12,417 nucleotides of DNA from a virus (taxonomy: Duplodnaviria; Heunggongvirae; Uroviricota; Caudoviricetes). A model generated the notes under the pieces. That model saw only the letters and a program-made list of their open reading frames with translations. It had not been told where the DNA came from and searched no databases. Positions 1 to 9,948 of this stretch are shown here, piece by piece; position 1 is the first letter of the stretch, and each line of letters opens with the position of its first letter. The position numbers and the translations under genes are program-made. The DNA is taken from the IMG/VR virus record IMGVR_UViG_2617270966_000008, one strand, 5' to 3'.

Positions 1-207
1 GGTTGCCCGGCATCCAACGCCATTCATGGCCATATCAATGATTTTCTGGTGCGTACCGGGTTGAGAAGCGGTGTAAGTGAACTGCAGTTGCCATGTTTTA
101 CGGCAGTGAGAGCAGAGATAGCGCTGATGTCCGGCAGTGCTTTTGCCGTTACGCACCACCCCGTCAGTAGCTGAACAGGAGGGACAGCTGATAGAAACAG
201 AAGCCAC
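1..207 (-). CDS. insA: IS1 InsA (partial; 69 N-terminal codons, 3' end off-window)
   Basis: Minus-strand frame open from 207 to the window edge, GTG start at 205-207. Translation (M)[68 protein letters not shown] matches InsA as recalled. Absent from the ORF track because it has no stop in the window. Confidence 0.85.
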
Positions 208-262
208 TGGAGCACCTCAAAAACACCATCATACACTAAATCAGTAAGTTGGCAGCATCACC
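1..262 (-). mobile_element. IS1 insertion sequence, left-end portion (terminal inverted repeat plus 5' part of insA); rest of element lies beyond window start
   Basis: Reverse complement of 240-262 reads GGTGATGCTGCCAACTTACTGAT, which matches the IS1 terminal inverted repeat as I recall it. The adjoining minus-strand frame encodes the InsA N-terminus. Element boundary at 262/263. Confidence 0.9.
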
Positions 263-356
263 TAAAACCGGCGGCAATGGACGACCAGGTCACATCTTCA
301 TGATTATTAGCCGCCCATGCCCCCCAACGCTCAAGAACCATCTGAATATCACGCAT
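263..356 (-). pseudogene. Q-like late antiterminator gene truncated by the IS1 insertion (31 native codons remain)
   Basis: ATG at 354-356 (minus) preceded by GGAG at 364-367. Encodes [31 protein letters not shown], then runs into the IS1 end and stops at once (AGG TGA). The peptide matches my recollection of the N-terminus of Qin/DLP12/933W-type Q antiterminators; not verified. Confidence 0.5.
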
Positions 357-2237: not shown

Positions 2238-2393
2238 TTACTCCTCAGGTTCGTAAGCTGTGAAGACAGCGACCTCCGTCTGGCCGGTTCGGATTCGTAC
2301 CTCGCAGAGGTCTTTCCTCGTTACCAGTGCCGTCACTATGACGGTTAAACAGATGACGATCAGGGCGATTAACATCGCCTTTTGCTGCTTCAT
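2238..2393 (-). CDS. hokD: Hok-family type I toxin (HokD/RelF-like), 51 aa
   Basis: MKQQKAMLIALIVICLTVIVTALVTRKDLCEVRIRTGQTEVAVFTAYEPEE: single TM segment then the LTRK-LCE-R-G-EV-A-YE Hok signature. ATG at 2391-2393 with AAGGAG RBS. The track's 70-aa ORF is an in-frame upstream extension from an ATG at 2448-2450. Confidence 0.85.
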   Translation of the reverse strand: MKQQKAMLIALIVICLTVIVTALVTRKDLCEVRIRTGQTEVAVFTAYEPEE

Positions 2394-2604
2394 AGCCTGC
2401 TTCTCCTTGCCTTCCGGCACGTAAGAGGCTAACCTACATGTGTCTAGCATGAAATTGGCCTCAGATTAATGTTAAGCGTCTTGCAGGACGCGTAATGTTA
2501 ACTGGGGCTTTTCTCTATCTGCCTTTGGTGTTCATGCCCGAGGCAGATAGCCTCAAGCACCCGCAGGCATTCTACTTAACTCCCGTTACCTCGCCAATAT
2601 GCAA

Positions 2605-2694
2605 TCAGTCAGAAAGGCGATCCATAAGAACAATGGCAAGAAAATAAATCGCCATTACAGCCGCAATAGCCAGCGCACATTTGAGAACCAGCAC
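2605..2694 (-). CDS. candidate small hydrophobic peptide, 29 aa (MLVLKCALAIAAVMAIYFLAIVLMDRLSD)
   Basis: Below the ORF-track size cut-off. GTG at 2692-2694 sits 5 nt after a perfect AGGAGG (2700-2705). Predicted single TM helix with a charged C-terminus. In-frame stop upstream at 2749-2751, no ATG alternative. Confidence 0.3.
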   Translation of the reverse strand: MLVLKCALAIAAVMAIYFLAIVLMDRLSD

Positions 2695-3052
2695 CACAAC
2701 CTCCTGTATTGGACGTACACCAGTCCTGATAAATATGAGGCTGTCTCGTCAGTGATTCAATGCAACTATTAGATATAGTTTCTCTGATTTTGTTCTGTGG
2801 AAATGAAAAACAGCAACCAGTCACCACCAGCACTTCTTTAAATATGCAAAGTCCGATAACAAGCTAACCTTCTAGTCCGCTTTTATTTAGCGAGAAGCGG
2901 ACATTTACTATTCATACCTGTTTAGCTCCACTCTCTTTTGAGTGTTCCGATTGTCCGTACATCATTGAGTGCTCATCCGGTGTGTTTGAGAGGTGCATTC
3001 CAGATCCGAATAGCACCTCGCTTACCATAAAAAACTCTTAATACTCTTTTTC

Positions 3053-5449
3053 CTAAGATAACCTTGGTGGTTCGCCAATGCTTTTTAACAAGGAATTGTA
3101 TTGATGCGGATCTGACGCATAAATCTTGTCTAACACGTAGTTGGCTACCTTGGAAATTTCTGGAATCTCCACAGGTTTGAATCCGCGATCAGGAATTGAT
3201 TCGAGATGTGAAAACTCGTTGTTAAGTCTATTCACAAGAGCTATCGCTGTTGAATCCTCTTCGCCAAAGAATTTCTTGATCCGTTCAAAGGCATCGTTCT
3301 TGTCATCATGGTGCGGGAACTTAAAGAACAGAAATGCCTCAAGGAACTTGCGGAGGTTGTTACCGAATCCATAGTATGGTTCATGAGATTCATTCGCTCC
3401 AACTTGATTACGGCACTTGTAAATCTGATGAAACAGGTAGTTGAATTCAGTGATGTAGTCTCGCAAATATGAAGGCATCAGGGAAATCTGACTTGTCCCT
3501 CCATTTCTCTCAACGATTAAATGTTGGCATCCACCATGATTCCTTTCATTAGGAAGTGATATTTTCTTCAGATATTTCAAGAAATCTAGGTTGTGGGTGG
3601 ATATAAAAAGCTGCTTATAGCGATAGCTGTTTGTTCCATCTAAATTCTTAATGGGTTTCGCAATCAGGCTTTCAATCAAGCTGAACATGAAGAAAATGTG
3701 ATTTCCGTCAAGACTGGAAATCGGGTCATCTATATAAATGATCAGATCCTTACCTTTGCTTTCAGGCTCTTCCAACTTGGCCATGAAGTAGCAGAAAGCA
3801 ATCAGGCTGCATTCTCCTTCGCTCAAGTTGTAGGCTGATTTGCCATCTCTGGTGACTTCAAACTTAACCGAAGTATTCTCAACATTGTCTTTTGCTTCAA
3901 GTTCGATGCCGTCATGACCAAAAAAGTGGCTGAGCAACTCATTGACTCGCTCCGCGCCCTTGCGTTCATCCTTCTGCTGCCCCTGTAAACGGGTCACTTC
4001 GGTTTCTTGTTCAAAAATTTCAGCTTCAGTTTCGGTAAAGGCAGTGTTGGCTGTGTTAGCATCTGACTTAAGACTGGCAATACGGGCGAATTCATTATCG
4101 TAGGTGATGTCTGCGATAAAAGACGCCACATCGGTAAGCCGGAGAGATTCTCGTGCAGTGCTTTTATCGTTCTCCAGCGAAATTGTGCGGTCATTATTTT
4201 TGACGATCAGAGCATTGATGTCGCCCACACATTGCTGAATTGCTGTCGGATTATGAATATAGACAGGCATGAGAACCTGCTGAAAAATAGCGTTCTTTCT
4301 CTTATCCAACGCCGCCTGCAGAGCTTTGAGGTCCTGCATGTAGTCTTTCAGATGTTCAGAAAGTTCTATCTTGCTGTTTTCAAATAATATTTTCTCTTCT
4401 GCGTAGAATTTATCGCCAGTCAAAGTCAAGAAGTTAGGAATGGCTTGGATTTCGGTGGTGATAGAAGTCAGACATGAATCGATACTTGACTCCAGAGCCG
4501 AGGATTCCTTACTGAAGTGAGAGCCTAATACCTGCCAGATATCATGAGGAAGATTCTGACGACAGAATGCGCAAGTGTCCCGCTTATCTTTGTGCAGCGG
4601 TATACCTTCCTTCACCCACATCTGGAGAGCCGTCTCATTCAACAACTCCTGAATTGGCAGGGTAGGCTCAATCAATCTTAAAAGGAGTTCTTCAGCTTCT
4701 TTGCTTATTGATTCGATGTTGAGGTTTATCGATACGGTATCGTTAATATCAGGCAAGGCCTCTTGCTTCAAGAGATTGACCTTGGCTGCTTGTTCTTCGG
4801 TTGTCAGAGCCCTGAAGCCAGGTTTTTTGACTAAACCAATGTCTTTTTTGATGCTTTCTATGTTGTAGACAGCAGGGCCGTAGATGCGATTCTGTTTAAT
4901 CTTATTGTTAGCATGAGAACGAAGTTTGCCCTCTAGAGCATCAGACGCAGTTTTATGATTGTCTTTGGTTCGATCTCGCTCTTTCTTTTTAGCTTCAAGC
5001 TCATGTCGGAGACCCGCCTTCGATTCAACACTGCCTAACCTAGTTTGAATTGCGGTAATGGCATCTTCGATTTCTTTATTCTTTTCACCAACGATAGCAA
5101 ACGTCTTGATCTCGCCGTCGGTCTGATTGACCAAGAAGTTTAGGTTATCGCTCACAAAATCCCGGTTGTAGACGCGAACATCGTAGCCATGACCAGCAAG
5201 ACCTACCTGTGTCACATCACCTTTGTCACCACGAATAGTAAAATTTGGGTCCACGTAGTTATGTGGAATGCGCCCCGTTTCCAAAGCGCGGAAAATTCGT
5301 GAGAGTGTAGTTTTACCAGAGTAGTTCCGTCCGTAGAGGATGTTAAGCCTCTTGAAATTCTGGACATTGTTACCTGCATCCTTAAGGCTATTTTTCCAAC
5401 TGAGGTCCGTAAAACTACCGAAACTACCGATGTCAACCTGACTAAACAT
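3053..5449 (-). CDS. Rad50/SMC-like ABC ATPase with internal coiled coil, CxxC zinc hook and C-terminal effector domain; RloC/PrrC-like (AAA_13-type) putative anticodon nuclease / anti-phage protein
   Basis: Residue numbers follow the 800-aa track ORF. Walker A GRNYSGKTT (42-50); long K/E/L-rich region with C295-x2-C298; C-terminal ABC signature-like LSEGE, Walker B LIIYIDDP, D-loop SSLD, H-loop ISTHN; then a roughly 170-aa domain with RKFLE...FPHH and RNHGGCQH motifs. Probable start is the ATG at 5447-5449 (GGAAG RBS), two codons inside the track's GTG. Gene looks AT-richer than its neighbours by eye. Confidence 0.8.
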   Translation of the reverse strand: MFSQVDIGSFGSFTDLSWKNSLKDAGNNVQNFKRLNILYGRNYSGKTTLSRIFRALETGRIPHNYVDPNFTIRGDKGDVTQVGLAGHGYDVRVYNRDFVSDNLNFLVNQTDGEIKTFAIVGEKNKEIEDAITAIQTRLGSVESKAGLRHELEAKKKERDRTKDNHKTASDALEGKLRSHANNKIKQNRIYGPAVYNIESIKKDIGLVKKPGFRALTTEEQAAKVNLLKQEALPDINDTVSINLNIESISKEAEELLLRLIEPTLPIQELLNETALQMWVKEGIPLHKDKRDTCAFCRQNLPHDIWQVLGSHFSKESSALESSIDSCLTSITTEIQAIPNFLTLTGDKFYAEEKILFENSKIELSEHLKDYMQDLKALQAALDKRKNAIFQQVLMPVYIHNPTAIQQCVGDINALIVKNNDRTISLENDKSTARESLRLTDVASFIADITYDNEFARIASLKSDANTANTAFTETEAEIFEQETEVTRLQGQQKDERKGAERVNELLSHFFGHDGIELEAKDNVENTSVKFEVTRDGKSAYNLSEGECSLIAFCYFMAKLEEPESKGKDLIIYIDDPISSLDGNHIFFMFSLIESLIAKPIKNLDGTNSYRYKQLFISTHNLDFLKYLKKISLPNERNHGGCQHLIVERNGGTSQISLMPSYLRDYITEFNYLFHQIYKCRNQVGANESHEPYYGFGNNLRKFLEAFLFFKFPHHDDKNDAFERIKKFFGEEDSTAIALVNRLNNEFSHLESIPDRGFKPVEIPEISKVANYVLDKIYASDPHQYNSLLKSIGEPPRLS

Positions 5450-5468
5450 GAACACTTCCGTCGCGCTG

Positions 5469-5496
5469 GCTATAGATTGTCAATTTGCAATTGAAA
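5469..5496 (-). promoter_or_regulatory. candidate promoter for the RloC-like gene (minus strand: TTTCAA, 16-nt spacer, TATAGC)
   Basis: Hexamers read in the 89-nt gap upstream of the ATPase gene. Pattern match only. Confidence 0.3.
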
Positions 5497-5544
5497 CAGA
5501 TTGTTAACCCAGTCTACTCTGAGTTTAAGGAATGTTTAAATAGG

Positions 5545-5973
5545 TTATTGATACTTCAATAAATATCGAACATTTCCCTGATAAAAAGACAATATACGCT
5601 GCATAACTTCGCTTTTACGGCACTCACTACAAATTATATTATGATGTCTGTCGTAACGACGTATTTCTCCGTCAGCTAATGACCAGATAAGGTCTGGATC
5701 AACCGCAGCGGGTTTCTTCACCTTTGCCCTCGAGAGTTTTTTGCGGGCGTTTTGCCAGTCCTTACGGGCCTGTTCAGACGGGAATAACCCGTAACCAGAG
5801 TTGTATACATCGCCACTGGCAACCAGCTCTCTGGCAAGAGCGCTCATCAGATATCTTGTCGCACCTGTCTTGGCTTCCAGTTGCCGTAACGTCTCACGAC
5901 CGCTCTGGCGCACGAGTTCCACCACCTGCCCTTTAATTTTTTCCCGCTCTTCTTGTGTAAAAACTTTTGCCAC
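5545..5973 (-). CDS. hypothetical protein, 142 aa, possible HTH-like N-terminus and C-terminal Cys pair
   Basis: GTG start at 5971-5973 preceded by AAGGGGGA RBS. No family recognised. Lies between the O-like replication gene and the ATPase gene. Confidence 0.65.
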   Translation of the reverse strand: MAKVFTQEEREKIKGQVVELVRQSGRETLRQLEAKTGATRYLMSALARELVASGDVYNSGYGLFPSEQARKDWQNARKKLSRAKVKKPAAVDPDLIWSLADGEIRRYDRHHNIICSECRKSEVMQRILSFYQGNVRYLLKYQ

Positions 5974-6013: not shown

Positions 6014-6979
6014 TTATCCCCTGAAACCAGGCGGAATTTCGGTATCCGGTTCAGAAATATGATTCACACAACGCTTTATTGGCGAACGCCCCAGGCGAAT
6101 AACCAGCTCATCCCATTTTTCGCGAAGCTTTGACGGACTCATGATGTTTTTGACCCAGAATGGATCTCGCTGTACCCGACCAAACATTTCGCAAATTTGT
6201 CTGTGGCTTCTGCCATCCAGCATCCGCATTGTGCGCACGTCATTGGCCCAGGCAGTCCAGTTAGGCTCTTTTGGTCGCATGATCTCGCCATCATCACTGG
6301 CGGCCTGTTCGTAGAGACCCACGATCCGCCCCCAGATCCACTGCGCACACGCCAAATCCTCCCTGCTACCCCACTGCCGTTTTTTCGCACTAAACACAAC
6401 TGCGTCAGGGTGCCGGATTAAAAAATCCTGTTCAGCCGTCTGCTGGTCCGGTTGCAAAGCTTCCGGACGAAAAGTGTTTTTATTCTCTGTAGTAATCTCT
6501 GTTGTATTCTCTGTAGGATCATCGGGCCATTTTGACCCGATGACATTGGGTCGTTTTGAACCAATGGAGCGTTTCATTTTGACCTCTTCCATCATGTCAT
6601 TTTGACCTGATGGAGCGACGCATTTTGAACTGATGGATTCGCTCAATTTGCCACCATCTAAAAGATCGCTCCCATAGTTGATCGTGTAGAAATTGGTCAT
6701 GTCGCGCTTTGATTTATTGAGCTTTTCGCAACGCAAAAGCCCCAGCGTTTTCAGACTTGCAAACGCGCGCTTTAACGTTGACTCTGACCAGAACGGGAAC
6801 TGCGCCAGCCATTGTTCCGTTGTGTTGTAAATCCAGCGAACACCATCACATTCCATGCCGGAATTGGTATCTCTCAACCAGTAATGCAGTTGCTGCAACA
6901 CAATGGCTTCGTTTAAGCCAATCTTCATCGCAAGCTGTGTGTTTATAACCAGTGGGCGTTCAGCAAAAAGAAGGCTCAT
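6014..6979 (-). CDS. lambda-O-like replication initiator (replisome organiser); origin iterons lie inside the gene
   Basis: Open frame to 7033 (TTG), but the ATG at 6977-6979 with a weak GGATGG RBS is the likelier start (321 aa). N-terminal winged-helix-like region, central T/E/N-rich linker encoded by the repeat region, conserved-looking C-terminal domain. Iteron array inside the gene supports the call. Confidence 0.7.
   Translation of the reverse strand: MSLLFAERPLVINTQLAMKIGLNEAIVLQQLHYWLRDTNSGMECDGVRWIYNTTEQWLAQFPFWSESTLKRAFASLKTLGLLRCEKLNKSKRDMTNFYTINYGSDLLDGGKLSESISSKCVAPSGQNDMMEEVKMKRSIGSKRPNVIGSKWPDDPTENTTEITTENKNTFRPEALQPDQQTAEQDFLIRHPDAVVFSAKKRQWGSREDLACAQWIWGRIVGLYEQAASDDGEIMRPKEPNWTAWANDVRTMRMLDGRSHRQICEMFGRVQRDPFWVKNIMSPSKLREKWDELVIRLGRSPIKRCVNHISEPDTEIPPGFRG
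6481..6665. repeat. putative replication origin: three tandem 12-mers (6481-6516) followed by about five iterons of consensus ATTTTGACC-GATGG at 23-24-bp spacing
   Basis: TATTCTCTGTAG / TAATCTCTGTTG / TATTCTCTGTAG in tandem. TTTTGA cores start at 6540, 6564, 6587, 6610 and 6633, with a degenerate sixth near 6655. Arrangement mirrors ori-lambda inside gene O. Confidence 0.6.
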
Positions 6980-7481
6980 AATTCCATCCAGCTTTTTGTT
7001 GGTATTGCTGTCGATACGCAAGCTTGAAAGCAATTGCTTTTTCTATAAGTTCGTCAGTTTCACGATCTACAACGGCAGGATCTGCAAAAAGCAGTCCGGA
7101 CTCCACCACATCGCCATATTCTTTATTTAACCCAGCGATCATGTACGTAATGCTCTTTCCGTCACTAATTTCACGATACAACCTGAAATCACTAATCCGG
7201 ATAGCCTCCATAATTGCAGGCACTAGCGCTGTGAACTTTTCACGCTTATCCCTGGTGTCGATAGCCTTCCAGCGTTCAAATATCTTCACTCGATTAACGC
7301 TAAGCGCTCGCTGATCAACCGCGCCACCTTCATATGTGACACGCTGAACATCGATGTTCGGGCGCTCTTTCAAAGCCCAGAATGCTTCAGTGATTAATAT
7401 CGTCGCCTGCTCCTGTGTCATTCCTGGTCGACATATCCAGGCATCCAGAGCCTCACGAGCCTGTTCAGGAGTGATTTTCAT
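6960..7481 (-). CDS. hypothetical early protein, 173 aa (occupies the cII/YdaT-like position after the cro-like gene)
   Basis: ATG at 7479-7481; overlaps the dicC stop by 17 nt and the O-like gene start by about 20 nt. No family recognised. Confidence 0.65.
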   Translation of the reverse strand: MKITPEQAREALDAWICRPGMTQEQATILITEAFWALKERPNIDVQRVTYEGGAVDQRALSVNRVKIFERWKAIDTRDKREKFTALVPAIMEAIRISDFRLYREISDGKSITYMIAGLNKEYGDVVESGLLFADPAVVDRETDELIEKAIAFKLAYRQQYQQKAGWNYEPSFC

Positions 7482-8509: not shown

Positions 8510-9085
8510 ATGGATTTCGACACAATCATGGAAAAGGCTTACGAAGAATACTTCGAAGGCCTTGCCGAAGGCGAAGAAGCTCTCAGCTTCAGTGAGTTTA
8601 AACAGGCACTCAGAATAAGAATGTGCTCTCACAATGACGCGGAGCACAAATATGAGAAGCAAAATCAGACCGCAGAAAATTTTGTTCTGGAACCCGGAGA
8701 AACGCTTTTCAAAATTCCCGTTACGTGCCCCATTTGCGGTTTTACATCAGAAGAACTTGACGACTCCTGTAACAATCAGGAAACAACCAAGTATGTCGAA
8801 GATGATACCGAGTGCGCACGAAGAACGATTATATCCACGAGTCCAAACTCCAGGACCAATAAATCTCACCTTGAGAGGGTAATTAATCCACTCCCCCAAA
8901 CCAATAAAAAAGATGCCGGAGGACAAAAAACCCAATGGAACAACGGGATATCTGTCAAAAAAAGACGTTCCATTAAAGACAAACAACGCAGCGCCAACAA
9001 CTGTAAGCGCTTTATACCAGTAATCAATTTTCATGTTCTTAAGCGGATTTATTGGTGGTTGCGACATTGCTTAATGAATCCTTAA
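8510..9085 (+). CDS. YdfB/YdfC-region ORF, continuous 191 codons here: acidic N-terminal part with CPICGF zinc-ribbon-like motif and a basic K/N-rich tail
   Basis: ATG at 8510 directly follows the ydfA stop (TGAtATG). Frame stays open to TAA at 9083-9085. From memory K-12 annotates separate ydfB (42 aa) and ydfC (72 aa) here, so the true extent is uncertain. Confidence 0.4.
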   Translation: MDFDTIMEKAYEEYFEGLAEGEEALSFSEFKQALRIRMCSHNDAEHKYEKQNQTAENFVLEPGETLFKIPVTCPICGFTSEELDDSCNNQETTKYVEDDTECARRTIISTSPNSRTNKSHLERVINPLPQTNKKDAGGQKTQWNNGISVKKRRSIKDKQRSANNCKRFIPVINFHVLKRIYWWLRHCLMNP

Positions 9086-9344
9086 AACTGTGGTGATTTT
9101 AAGGATACCACCTCGCCTGACGTGGTTAAAAGCAGGCACACAACACGAAAGCGCACGGCGAAGTTCGTCTCACTGTACGGTGTCGTTAAATTTAATTCGA
9201 CCGTGCGCTTCCGGTTGTGGCAACCCGCGAAATGGCGCGGCGGTAAGTATGGCGGGGGTATTCCTTCCCCGTTGAGGACACCGAGTTGTCAGGTTGACCA
9301 TACGCTTAAGTGACAACCCCGCTGCAACGCCCTCTGTTATCAAT

Positions 9345-9397
9345 TTTCTGGTGACGTTTGGCGGTATCAGTTTTACTCCGTGACTGCTCTGCCGCCG
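9345..9397 (+). ncRNA. dicF: DicF small regulatory RNA (ftsZ-targeting, Hfq-dependent) with its terminator hairpin
   Basis: TTTCTGGTGACGTTTGGCGGTATCAGTTTTACTCCGTGACTGCTCTGCCGCC followed by GTTTTT matches DicF as recalled. GGCGG/CCGCC stem plus U-run. Ends are approximate. Confidence 0.85.
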
Positions 9398-9571
9398 TTT
9401 TTAAAGTGAATTTTGTGATGCGGTGAATGCGGCTAAGCGCACGCGGAACAGTTAAAACCAAATACAGTGTTATGGGTGGATTCTCTGTATCCGGCGTTAA
9501 TTGTTAACTGGTTAACGTCACCTGGAGGCACTAGGCACTGCATCACAAAATTCATTGTTGAGGACGCGATA

Positions 9572-9760
9572 ATGAAAACGTTATTACCAAACGTTAATAC
9601 GTCTGAAGGTTGTTTTGAAATTGGTGTCACTATCAGTAACCCTGTATTTACTGAAGATGCCATTAACAAGAGAAAACAAGAACGGGAGCTATTAAATAAA
9701 ATATGCATTGTTTCAATGCTGGCTCGTTTACGTCTGATGCCAAAAGGATGTGCACAATGA
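9572..9760 (+). CDS. dicB: DicB cell-division inhibitor (MinC-dependent), 62 aa
   Basis: MKTLLPNVNTSEGCFEIGVTISNPVFTEDAINKRKQERELLNKICIVSMLARLRLMPKGCAQ; GAGGA RBS 6 nt upstream of the ATG. Confidence 0.9.
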   Translation: MKTLLPNVNTSEGCFEIGVTISNPVFTEDAINKRKQERELLNKICIVSMLARLRLMPKGCAQ

Positions 9761-9948
9761 ATTCAGCATTTGCGCTTGTTCTGACAGTTTTTCTTGTTTC
9801 CGGAGAGCCAGTTGATATTGCAGTCAGTGTTCACAGGACAATGCAGGAGTGTATGACTGCAGCAACCGAACAGAAAATTCCCGGTAACTGTTACCCGGTC
9901 GATAAAGTTATTCACCAGGATAATATCGAAATCCCGGCAGGTCTTTAA
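9757..9948 (+). CDS. ydfD: YdfD, small membrane/lysis-associated protein, 63 aa
   Basis: MNSAFALVLTVFLVSGEPVDIAVSVHRTMQECMTAATEQKIPGNCYPVDKVIHQDNIEIPAGL; its start overlaps the dicB stop (ATGA). Confidence 0.85.
   Translation: MNSAFALVLTVFLVSGEPVDIAVSVHRTMQECMTAATEQKIPGNCYPVDKVIHQDNIEIPAGL

Follow-up and report, generated by a model that had tools for sequence, protein, structure and literature searches.

The stretch of DNA analysed here (hereafter the window: 12,417 nucleotides of the IMG/VR virus record IMGVR_UViG_2617270966_000008) is a segment of an Escherichia coli Qin-like lambdoid prophage and is identical to NZ_CM128582 and NZ_CP128255. Its longest open reading frame (ORF), on the minus strand at 3053..5455, lies between the replication genes and hokD and encodes an ATP-binding cassette (ABC) ATPase that very probably belongs to the RloC family of anticodon nucleases. 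An original prediction, made from the letters of the window, had described the product as an RloC/PrrC-like, Rad50-type ABC ATPase. Profile matches, motif conservation, structure and fold searches and the RloC triad rule all support this description as far as RloC is concerned, and the protein is RloC-type, not PrrC-type. It is an uncharacterised new member of an already known family, in an unsurprising location.

The gene and its occurrence

Counted from a GTG at 5455, as in the ORF list, the product has the 800 amino acids (aa) at first ascribed to it. This GTG is an alternative upstream start; an ATG at 5449 gives a product of 798 aa and is preceded, at a distance of 5 nt, by a Shine-Dalgarno sequence that is kept across three genera as GGAAG, GGGAG or AGGAG (GGAAG in the window copy). 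RefSeq annotates the same ATG (WP_032280029.1), under the label 'AAA family ATPase' only. We place the coding sequence at 3053..5449 on the minus strand (798 aa plus stop), on the evidence of the ORF list, the translation, the matches to AAA_13 and PDC-S06, the RefSeq record and the ratio of nonsynonymous to synonymous substitution rates (dN/dS). Residue numbers run from the ATG throughout, and numbering from the GTG is higher by 2.

The gene is intact and under purifying selection, with dN/dS = 0.16 against a Klebsiella copy and 0.12 against a Proteus copy. It had been noted as AT-richer than its surroundings, and the difference is real but modest (GC 0.432, versus 0.503 in the left flank and 0.466 in the right). 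An RloC-type gene is rare in the species (19 of 5426 complete genomes), and one E. coli copy is split by an IS3-family element (strain ECCHD184, NZ_CP033250.1 2461796..2465505). Deposited phage genomes yielded no close copy: matches there reach at most 40% identity, and at most 24% where most of the protein is covered, and these weak matches include Streptococcus prophages annotated as 'translation-disabling ACNase'.

Domain architecture and conserved residues

An AlphaFold2 model built from a 138-sequence alignment (mean predicted local distance difference test score, pLDDT, of 90.8) consists of a beta-rich head, helices at residues 122-510 that are broken at a CxxC motif, a second head lobe and an all-helical C-terminal domain. 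Conservation was assessed in an alignment of 138 full-length relatives, 32-72% identical to the query. The N-lobe of the ABC ATPase head (aa 1-121, 5087..5449, minus strand, like all features of the protein given below) is defined by its motif, by invariance and by the beta-rich, high-pLDDT region of the model, and contains the Walker A motif GRNYSGKT (aa 40-47, 5309..5332). The C-lobe (aa 511-657, 3479..3919), defined by motifs, conservation and a partial match to the PADLOC PrrC model, contains the signature LSEGE (aa 542-546, 3812..3826), the Walker B motif and D-loop IIYIDDPISSLD (aa 570-581, 3707..3742) and the H-loop residue H619 (3590..3598). Invariant among the relatives are G40 and K46 of Walker A, together with S543, G545, E546, D574, D575, S579-D581 and H619.

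The two lobes are separated by a long helical insert of the coiled-coil type (aa 122-510, 3920..5086; AlphaFold2, Foldseek), the predicted secondary structure of which is nearly all helix, with the longest helices spanning 47 residues. At residues 287-303 the model has a short strand or loop; this interruption separates the ascending from the descending helices and holds the putative CxxC zinc-hook motif, C293-A-F-C296 (4562..4573). Both cysteines are invariant in 138/138 relatives, and F295 is conserved in at least 90%. Thus all the ATPase motifs and the CxxC listed at the outset are present, with the K48 and C295/C298 of that description becoming K46 and C293/C296 in ATG numbering.

The remaining portion of the protein (aa 658-798, 3056..3478) is a predicted RNase domain with the HEPN fold, of the anticodon-nuclease type. 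It carries R700xxxE704 (RKFLE, aa 700-704, 3338..3352) and R741x6(S747)H748 (RLNNEFSH, aa 741-748, 3206..3229). R700, S747 and H748 are invariant, while R741, N744, E745 and E704 are conserved in at least 90% of the relatives (E704 in 139/140 sequences). The original prediction of a C-terminal domain with Arg/Glu/His motifs holds for RKFLE, and the predicted fold is HEPN, but the histidine it singled out does not stand: the pair HH713/714 is variable, the commonest residues at these positions being D/N and S/T/N. Judging from the alignment, the catalytic histidine would be H748 in the NEFSH motif, with a serine before it as in RloC, and not the HH pair. R700-X3-E704-X43-S747-H748 fits the published RloC triad pattern, and R741-x6-H748 agrees with the canonical HEPN motif Rx4-6H (Anantharaman et al. 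2013).

Structure prediction, one of the checks proposed for this gene, gave a consistent picture, with a HEPN-like C-terminal domain and a Rad50/SMC-like head. A Foldseek search of the PDB with the full model returned Rad50 (7zr1) at the top, followed by cohesin, condensin, SMC, SbcC, Lamassu and JetC heads, and the best matches in a fold search with the C-terminal domain were HEPN proteins. By sequence, the PDB held no true relative, the helical insert giving only compositional matches to apolipoproteins and keratin, and no solved structure of an RloC-type family member was detectable there.

Assignment to the RloC family

The founding description of RloC (Davidov & Kaufmann 2008, PMC2610378) comprises ABC motifs like those of PrrC, a helical insert that has CX2C at its centre, a C-proximal Arg-X3-Glu-X36-52-His in which a Ser often precedes the His, and a length of 658-897 aa. 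The protein has all four features, in the form of the ABC motifs, the CX2C insert, R-X3-E-X43-SH and 798 aa, and it has in addition the HEPN fold of the nuclease domain, a further RloC feature (Anantharaman et al. 2013). Fig. S1 in the supplement of the 2008 paper is a Jpred alignment that covers the coiled-coil region, and its Q63PW4_BURPS row retrieved the Burkholderia pseudomallei fragment P0272, a relative from the founding list to which our protein is 44% identical over the N-terminal 200 aa (E = 7e-51). Optical character recognition (OCR) of this supplement is only ~73-85% faithful, judged from the BURPS row. The OCR fragments for the coiled-coil regions of the two characterised enzymes, GkaRloC of Geobacillus kaustophilus and AbaRloC of Acinetobacter baylyi, were placed correctly with weak similarity (30% over 67 aa and 23% over 96 aa, respectively), and given this fidelity the fragment comparisons are weak evidence. 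The OCR-derived GkaRloC query found nothing at E <= 1e-10 in the protein search, and a genome scan with it gave no relative.

The protein resembles these two enzymes in size (798 aa versus 804 and 826 aa), in the split ABC head, in the coiled-coil insert with CX2C and in the R-X3-E-X(36-52)-(S)H triad, and its gene is likewise a stand-alone, laterally transferred one, linkage to type I restriction-modification (R-M) systems being occasional at the level of the family. The residues mutated experimentally are R692/E696/H737 in GkaRloC and the hook residue C314 in AbaRloC. The gene differs from theirs in belonging to another clade, with similarity that is weak as measured on the OCR fragments, and in being housed in an enterobacterial lambdoid prophage slot. 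With PrrC of the E. coli prr locus it shares the ABC motifs and the Arg-Glu-His nuclease pattern. However, PrrC has 341-416 aa and an uninterrupted ATPase without a coiled-coil or zinc-hook insert, whereas the present protein has 798 aa and an insert of 390 aa; and PrrC is always found inside a type Ic hsd locus, whereas the present gene is flanked by hok/sok and a Ren-like DUF977 gene, and no hsd genes occur within the window. Rad50 and SbcC are alike in their fold of head and coiled coil and in the CxxC hook, but the coiled coil is much shorter here and a C-terminal HEPN domain is added. The APECO1_4465 group of Anantharaman et al. (2013) likewise comprises prophage ABC ATPases with a C-terminal HEPN domain; the APEC O1 protein is listed with 738 aa in the 2008 supplementary table, and this 738-aa RloC/APECO1_4465 protein was not found in 100 kb of NC_008563 at a guessed position.

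The profile hidden Markov model search that had also been proposed gave strong matches. Pfam AAA_13 scores 509 bits across residues 23-773, and PADLOC PDC-S06 (PDLC04887) scores 1067 bits, with residues 1-794 aligned to positions 1-786 of the 790 in the profile. PHROG 2801 ('unknown function') likewise gives a full-length match (E = 7e-44). All three are groupings made by bioinformatics to which no mechanism has been assigned, and PDC-S06 is no more than a 'candidate'; the gene matches each of them over its full length. Relatives in beta- and gamma-proteobacteria that are 76-82% identical carry the JGI name 'wobble nucleotide-excising tRNase'. A threshold of E <= 0.001 yields 3901 relatives among 1.84 billion cluster representatives, and one of E <= 1e-30 yields 1067, most of them full-length. 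A scan of species-representative genomes gave 80 loci, which cover Pseudomonadota, Bacteroidota, Bacillota, Spirochaetota, candidate phyla and two archaeal lineages, and the order of motifs is unchanged in the four distant members checked. In the 58 loci whose flanks are complete, no neighbours recur other than subunits of type I R-M systems (HsdM at 10, HsdS at 7 and HsdR at 6), which matches the 'restriction-linked orf' trait of RloC and indicates that the gene has no obligate partner.

A mobile single-gene cassette

The RloC-type gene moves among prophages and islands as a single-gene cassette of 2.7 kb. In the window the cassette comprises, besides the gene, an upstream leader of 105 bp (5450..5554, minus strand), which DNA homology and a three-way alignment show to travel with the gene, and a downstream tail of 167 bp (2886..3052, minus strand), which is delimited by homology and ends at a GC-rich hairpin of 8 bp (2875..2902) found by a terminator scan at the end of the cassette. 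Copies of the whole unit (2886/2889..5554, ~2.7 kb) are found in two Klebsiella prophages (94% identical at the DNA level) and in a prophage of Proteus (85%), and the mean column identity of the leader in the three-way alignment that includes the Klebsiella and Proteus copies is 90%. Against an E. coli prophage with different cargo, the left limit of homology is at 2883. In Ralstonia, homology is confined to the ORF (74% DNA identity).

The surroundings of the gene change from host to host. In Klebsiella the cassette occupies the equivalent position, past the replication genes and ahead of a DUF968 gene; in Proteus it is found near the lysis genes, with transposases on its flanks; in Ralstonia the RloC-type gene is part of an island with SMEK_N and HNH_5 genes; and a second E. 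coli strain has a copy, 89% identical, in an integrase island, where it adjoins a DEAD-box helicase gene. One of the Klebsiella prophages (L012) also holds, at 8713..9870 and back to back with the cassette, a gene for a 385-aa HEPN_Toprim_N + HEPN_RiboL-PSP protein, so that two HEPN-type candidates are present in a single prophage slot.

A promoter of its own had been claimed for the gene. A sigma-70 scan does not support this, as it gave no minus-strand site in 5450-5560, even though the leader does travel with the gene. Inspection of the leader by eye gave only weak 7/12 promoter matches and a perfect TTGACA that has no -10 element and is not conserved in Klebsiella or Proteus, and no LexA box was found in the leader in this way. 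The absence of a sigma-70 consensus promoter is in line with the remark that rloC genes appear poorly expressed (PMC2610378). Expression by read-through from the early operon is possible.

A variable slot in Qin-like prophages

Qin-like prophages of E. coli have a slot with variable cargo, which extends from the DUF977 gene to hok/sok. When the window is compared with sister prophages, backbone homology ends at 5552-5561, just past the DUF977 stop codon, and resumes between 2407 and 2883. The slot (2407..5561) thus has a sharp right edge, at most ~10 nt from this stop codon, and a ragged left edge at 2407-2883. Its content differs among the prophages compared: a DUF4209 gene (L002); QueH with a hypothetical gene and a KwaB-like gene (L003); a Sll1717-type P-loop ATPase gene (L004); QueH alone (L098); and, in UMNK88 (L099), a series from a SAM methyltransferase gene to flxA, ydfV and relBE. 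K-12 Qin (L005) has ydfX, ydfW, flxA, ydfV and relBE, and lacks the DUF977 gene itself. The location between the replication genes and hok and the presence of other genes there in K-12 Qin are confirmed, and the reading of the RloC-type gene as a moron is supported, in the sense that a discrete cassette occupies a slot filled by other cargo in other strains.

Several further features of the prophage segment were recorded. Adjoining the slot is the DUF977 gene (142 aa, 5545..5973, minus strand), which matches PHROG 142 'Ren-like exclusion protein' (E = 1.5e-45) and directly follows the replication genes, the position of ren in lambda. The replication module (6014..7033 and 6960..7481, minus strand) consists of an O-like initiator gene (PHROG 391) preceded by a YdaT-family gene, and in the window no loader gene of the lambda P/DnaC type separates O from the Ren-like gene, unlike in Klebsiella prophage L012. 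Between the cassette and hok/sok, an unannotated ORF for 30 hydrophobic residues, MVLVLKCALAIAAVMAIYFLAIVLMDRLSD (2605..2697, minus strand), has an AGGAGG Shine-Dalgarno sequence and is intact in prophage L002 with two amino-acid changes; it has no match in Pfam or PHROG and could be a small membrane peptide, or chance. A segment of 94 nt beside hok/sok (2534..2627) has a second copy, 85% identical, next to QueH in L003 (4178..4271), and may represent either a regulatory element common to both sites or the boundary of a recombination event. The sok antitoxin RNA is found beside hokD (2388..2562, minus strand; Rfam, 117 bits) and the DicF small RNA at 9346..9397 (plus strand; Rfam, 72.5 bits), and positions 1..265 are the end of an IS1 that is 99-100% identical to IS1A/IS1B copies of many plasmids and chromosomes.

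Proposed mechanism and alternative explanations

We propose, with a probability of roughly 75%, that the product is a stand-alone anticodon nuclease of the RloC type and its gene a piece of cargo in a Qin-like lambdoid prophage. By analogy with GkaRloC and AbaRloC, the RNase would be kept silent by the ATPase and the zinc-hook region. Acting jointly with ATP hydrolysis, DNA ends or double-strand breaks that arise from genotoxic stress or from an infecting phage would serve as the trigger, upon which the HEPN domain would cleave tRNA anticodon loops and excise the wobble nucleotide. Translation would then stall and phage growth would be aborted in a manner that resists the tRNA-repair enzymes of the phage. 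The model follows what the RloC papers report: linear DNA and ATP hydrolysis activate the enzyme, and the ATPase/zinc-hook region silences the nuclease (PMC3458546, PMC3874168); mutations in the hook make the nuclease constitutive, and inducers of double-strand breaks activate it in vivo (PMC3458546, PMC3874168); and excision of the wobble nucleotide should defeat phage tRNA repair (PMC2610378, PMC3458546, PMC3874168). An anti-phage or abortive-infection role for the prophage gene is one that we infer from the family.

Four observations weigh against this proposal. The comparison with the characterised GkaRloC and AbaRloC runs through noisy OCR fragments of the coiled coil and nothing else; the PADLOC PrrC model matches residues 498-629 only (E = 4.6e-15), which covers the C-lobe of the ATPase and leaves the nuclease domain unmatched; no promoter was found in the searches of the leader, which makes expression in the lysogen uncertain; and the RloC literature examined proposes direct protection from phages and does not demonstrate it.

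The alternative that survives best keeps the architecture and changes the wiring, such that the HEPN domain cuts mRNA, rRNA or another set of tRNAs, or that a phage protein or nucleotide is the switch. The clade is only ~23-30% identical to GkaRloC and AbaRloC in the single region compared (the OCR fragments), PADLOC lists it as the separate candidate PDC-S06 with many sub-models, a 2025 preprint reports that DefenseFinder does not call an E. coli PDC-S06 ATPase, and tRNA targets already differ between GkaRloC and AbaRloC (PMC3874168). However, the catalytic pattern, the hook and the ATPase motifs are invariant across the family, which argues for a conserved mechanism, and we regard such rewiring as unlikely.

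Silencing in trans, as in PrrC, by a chromosomal type I R-M enzyme, with release when an anti-restriction protein of the phage disables that enzyme, is considerably less probable still. The founding RloC papers raised the idea of an interaction in trans, and type I R-M subunits, present at 10/58 loci, are the sole recurrent neighbours in the family; but R-M genes are absent from the window and from the Klebsiella, Proteus and Ralstonia contexts, and AbaRloC is activated by inducers of double-strand breaks even in an R-M-deficient host, according to PMC3874168.

It is very improbable that the gene forms a two-gene system with the adjacent DUF977 gene, a question that had been raised at the outset. 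Only 95 bp separate the two genes, which share a strand, but the product of the smaller one falls in the Ren-like exclusion protein family, this gene is kept beside unrelated cargo in other E. coli prophages, with the break in homology at most ~10 nt from its stop, and the cassette occurs without it in Proteus, in Ralstonia and in the second E. coli island. The DUF977 gene is part of the Ren-like prophage backbone and not a partner of the RloC-type gene, and we rejected it as such. Just as improbable is a Rad50/SbcC-like repair or recombination ATPase for prophage replication with a non-nuclease C-terminal domain, since the Rad50/SMC fold matches in the PDB and the adjoining replication module are outweighed by the lack of a Mre11/SbcD partner in the annotated context of the gene, by the HEPN fold with its invariant Rx6H and R/E pair, and by the unrelated cargo that fills the slot in sister prophages.

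Turning from the enzyme to its place in the prophage, the slot may, as a tentative suggestion that we hold somewhat less probable than its opposite, be a dedicated defence slot of Qin/Rac-type lambdoid prophages whose content is exchanged by recombination, with the RloC cassette as an abortive-infection module that senses DNA ends.

Conclusions

Since 2008, RloC has been recognised as a tRNase that is activated by DNA breaks and excises the wobble nucleotide, and the gain in annotation over the present RefSeq label is small but real. The locus is valuable mainly in that it offers a convenient model for RloC native to E. coli and draws attention to a prophage slot of variable content, which looks useful for seeking further prophage cargo. 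The copy is compact, intact and native to E. coli, with defined ends, so that phage-panel, tRNA-cleavage and structural tests are straightforward in a standard host. If the slot is indeed devoted to defence, the antiviral role long proposed for RloC would become testable in a model host, and the trigger or the tRNA target might differ from those of the Geobacillus and Acinetobacter enzymes.

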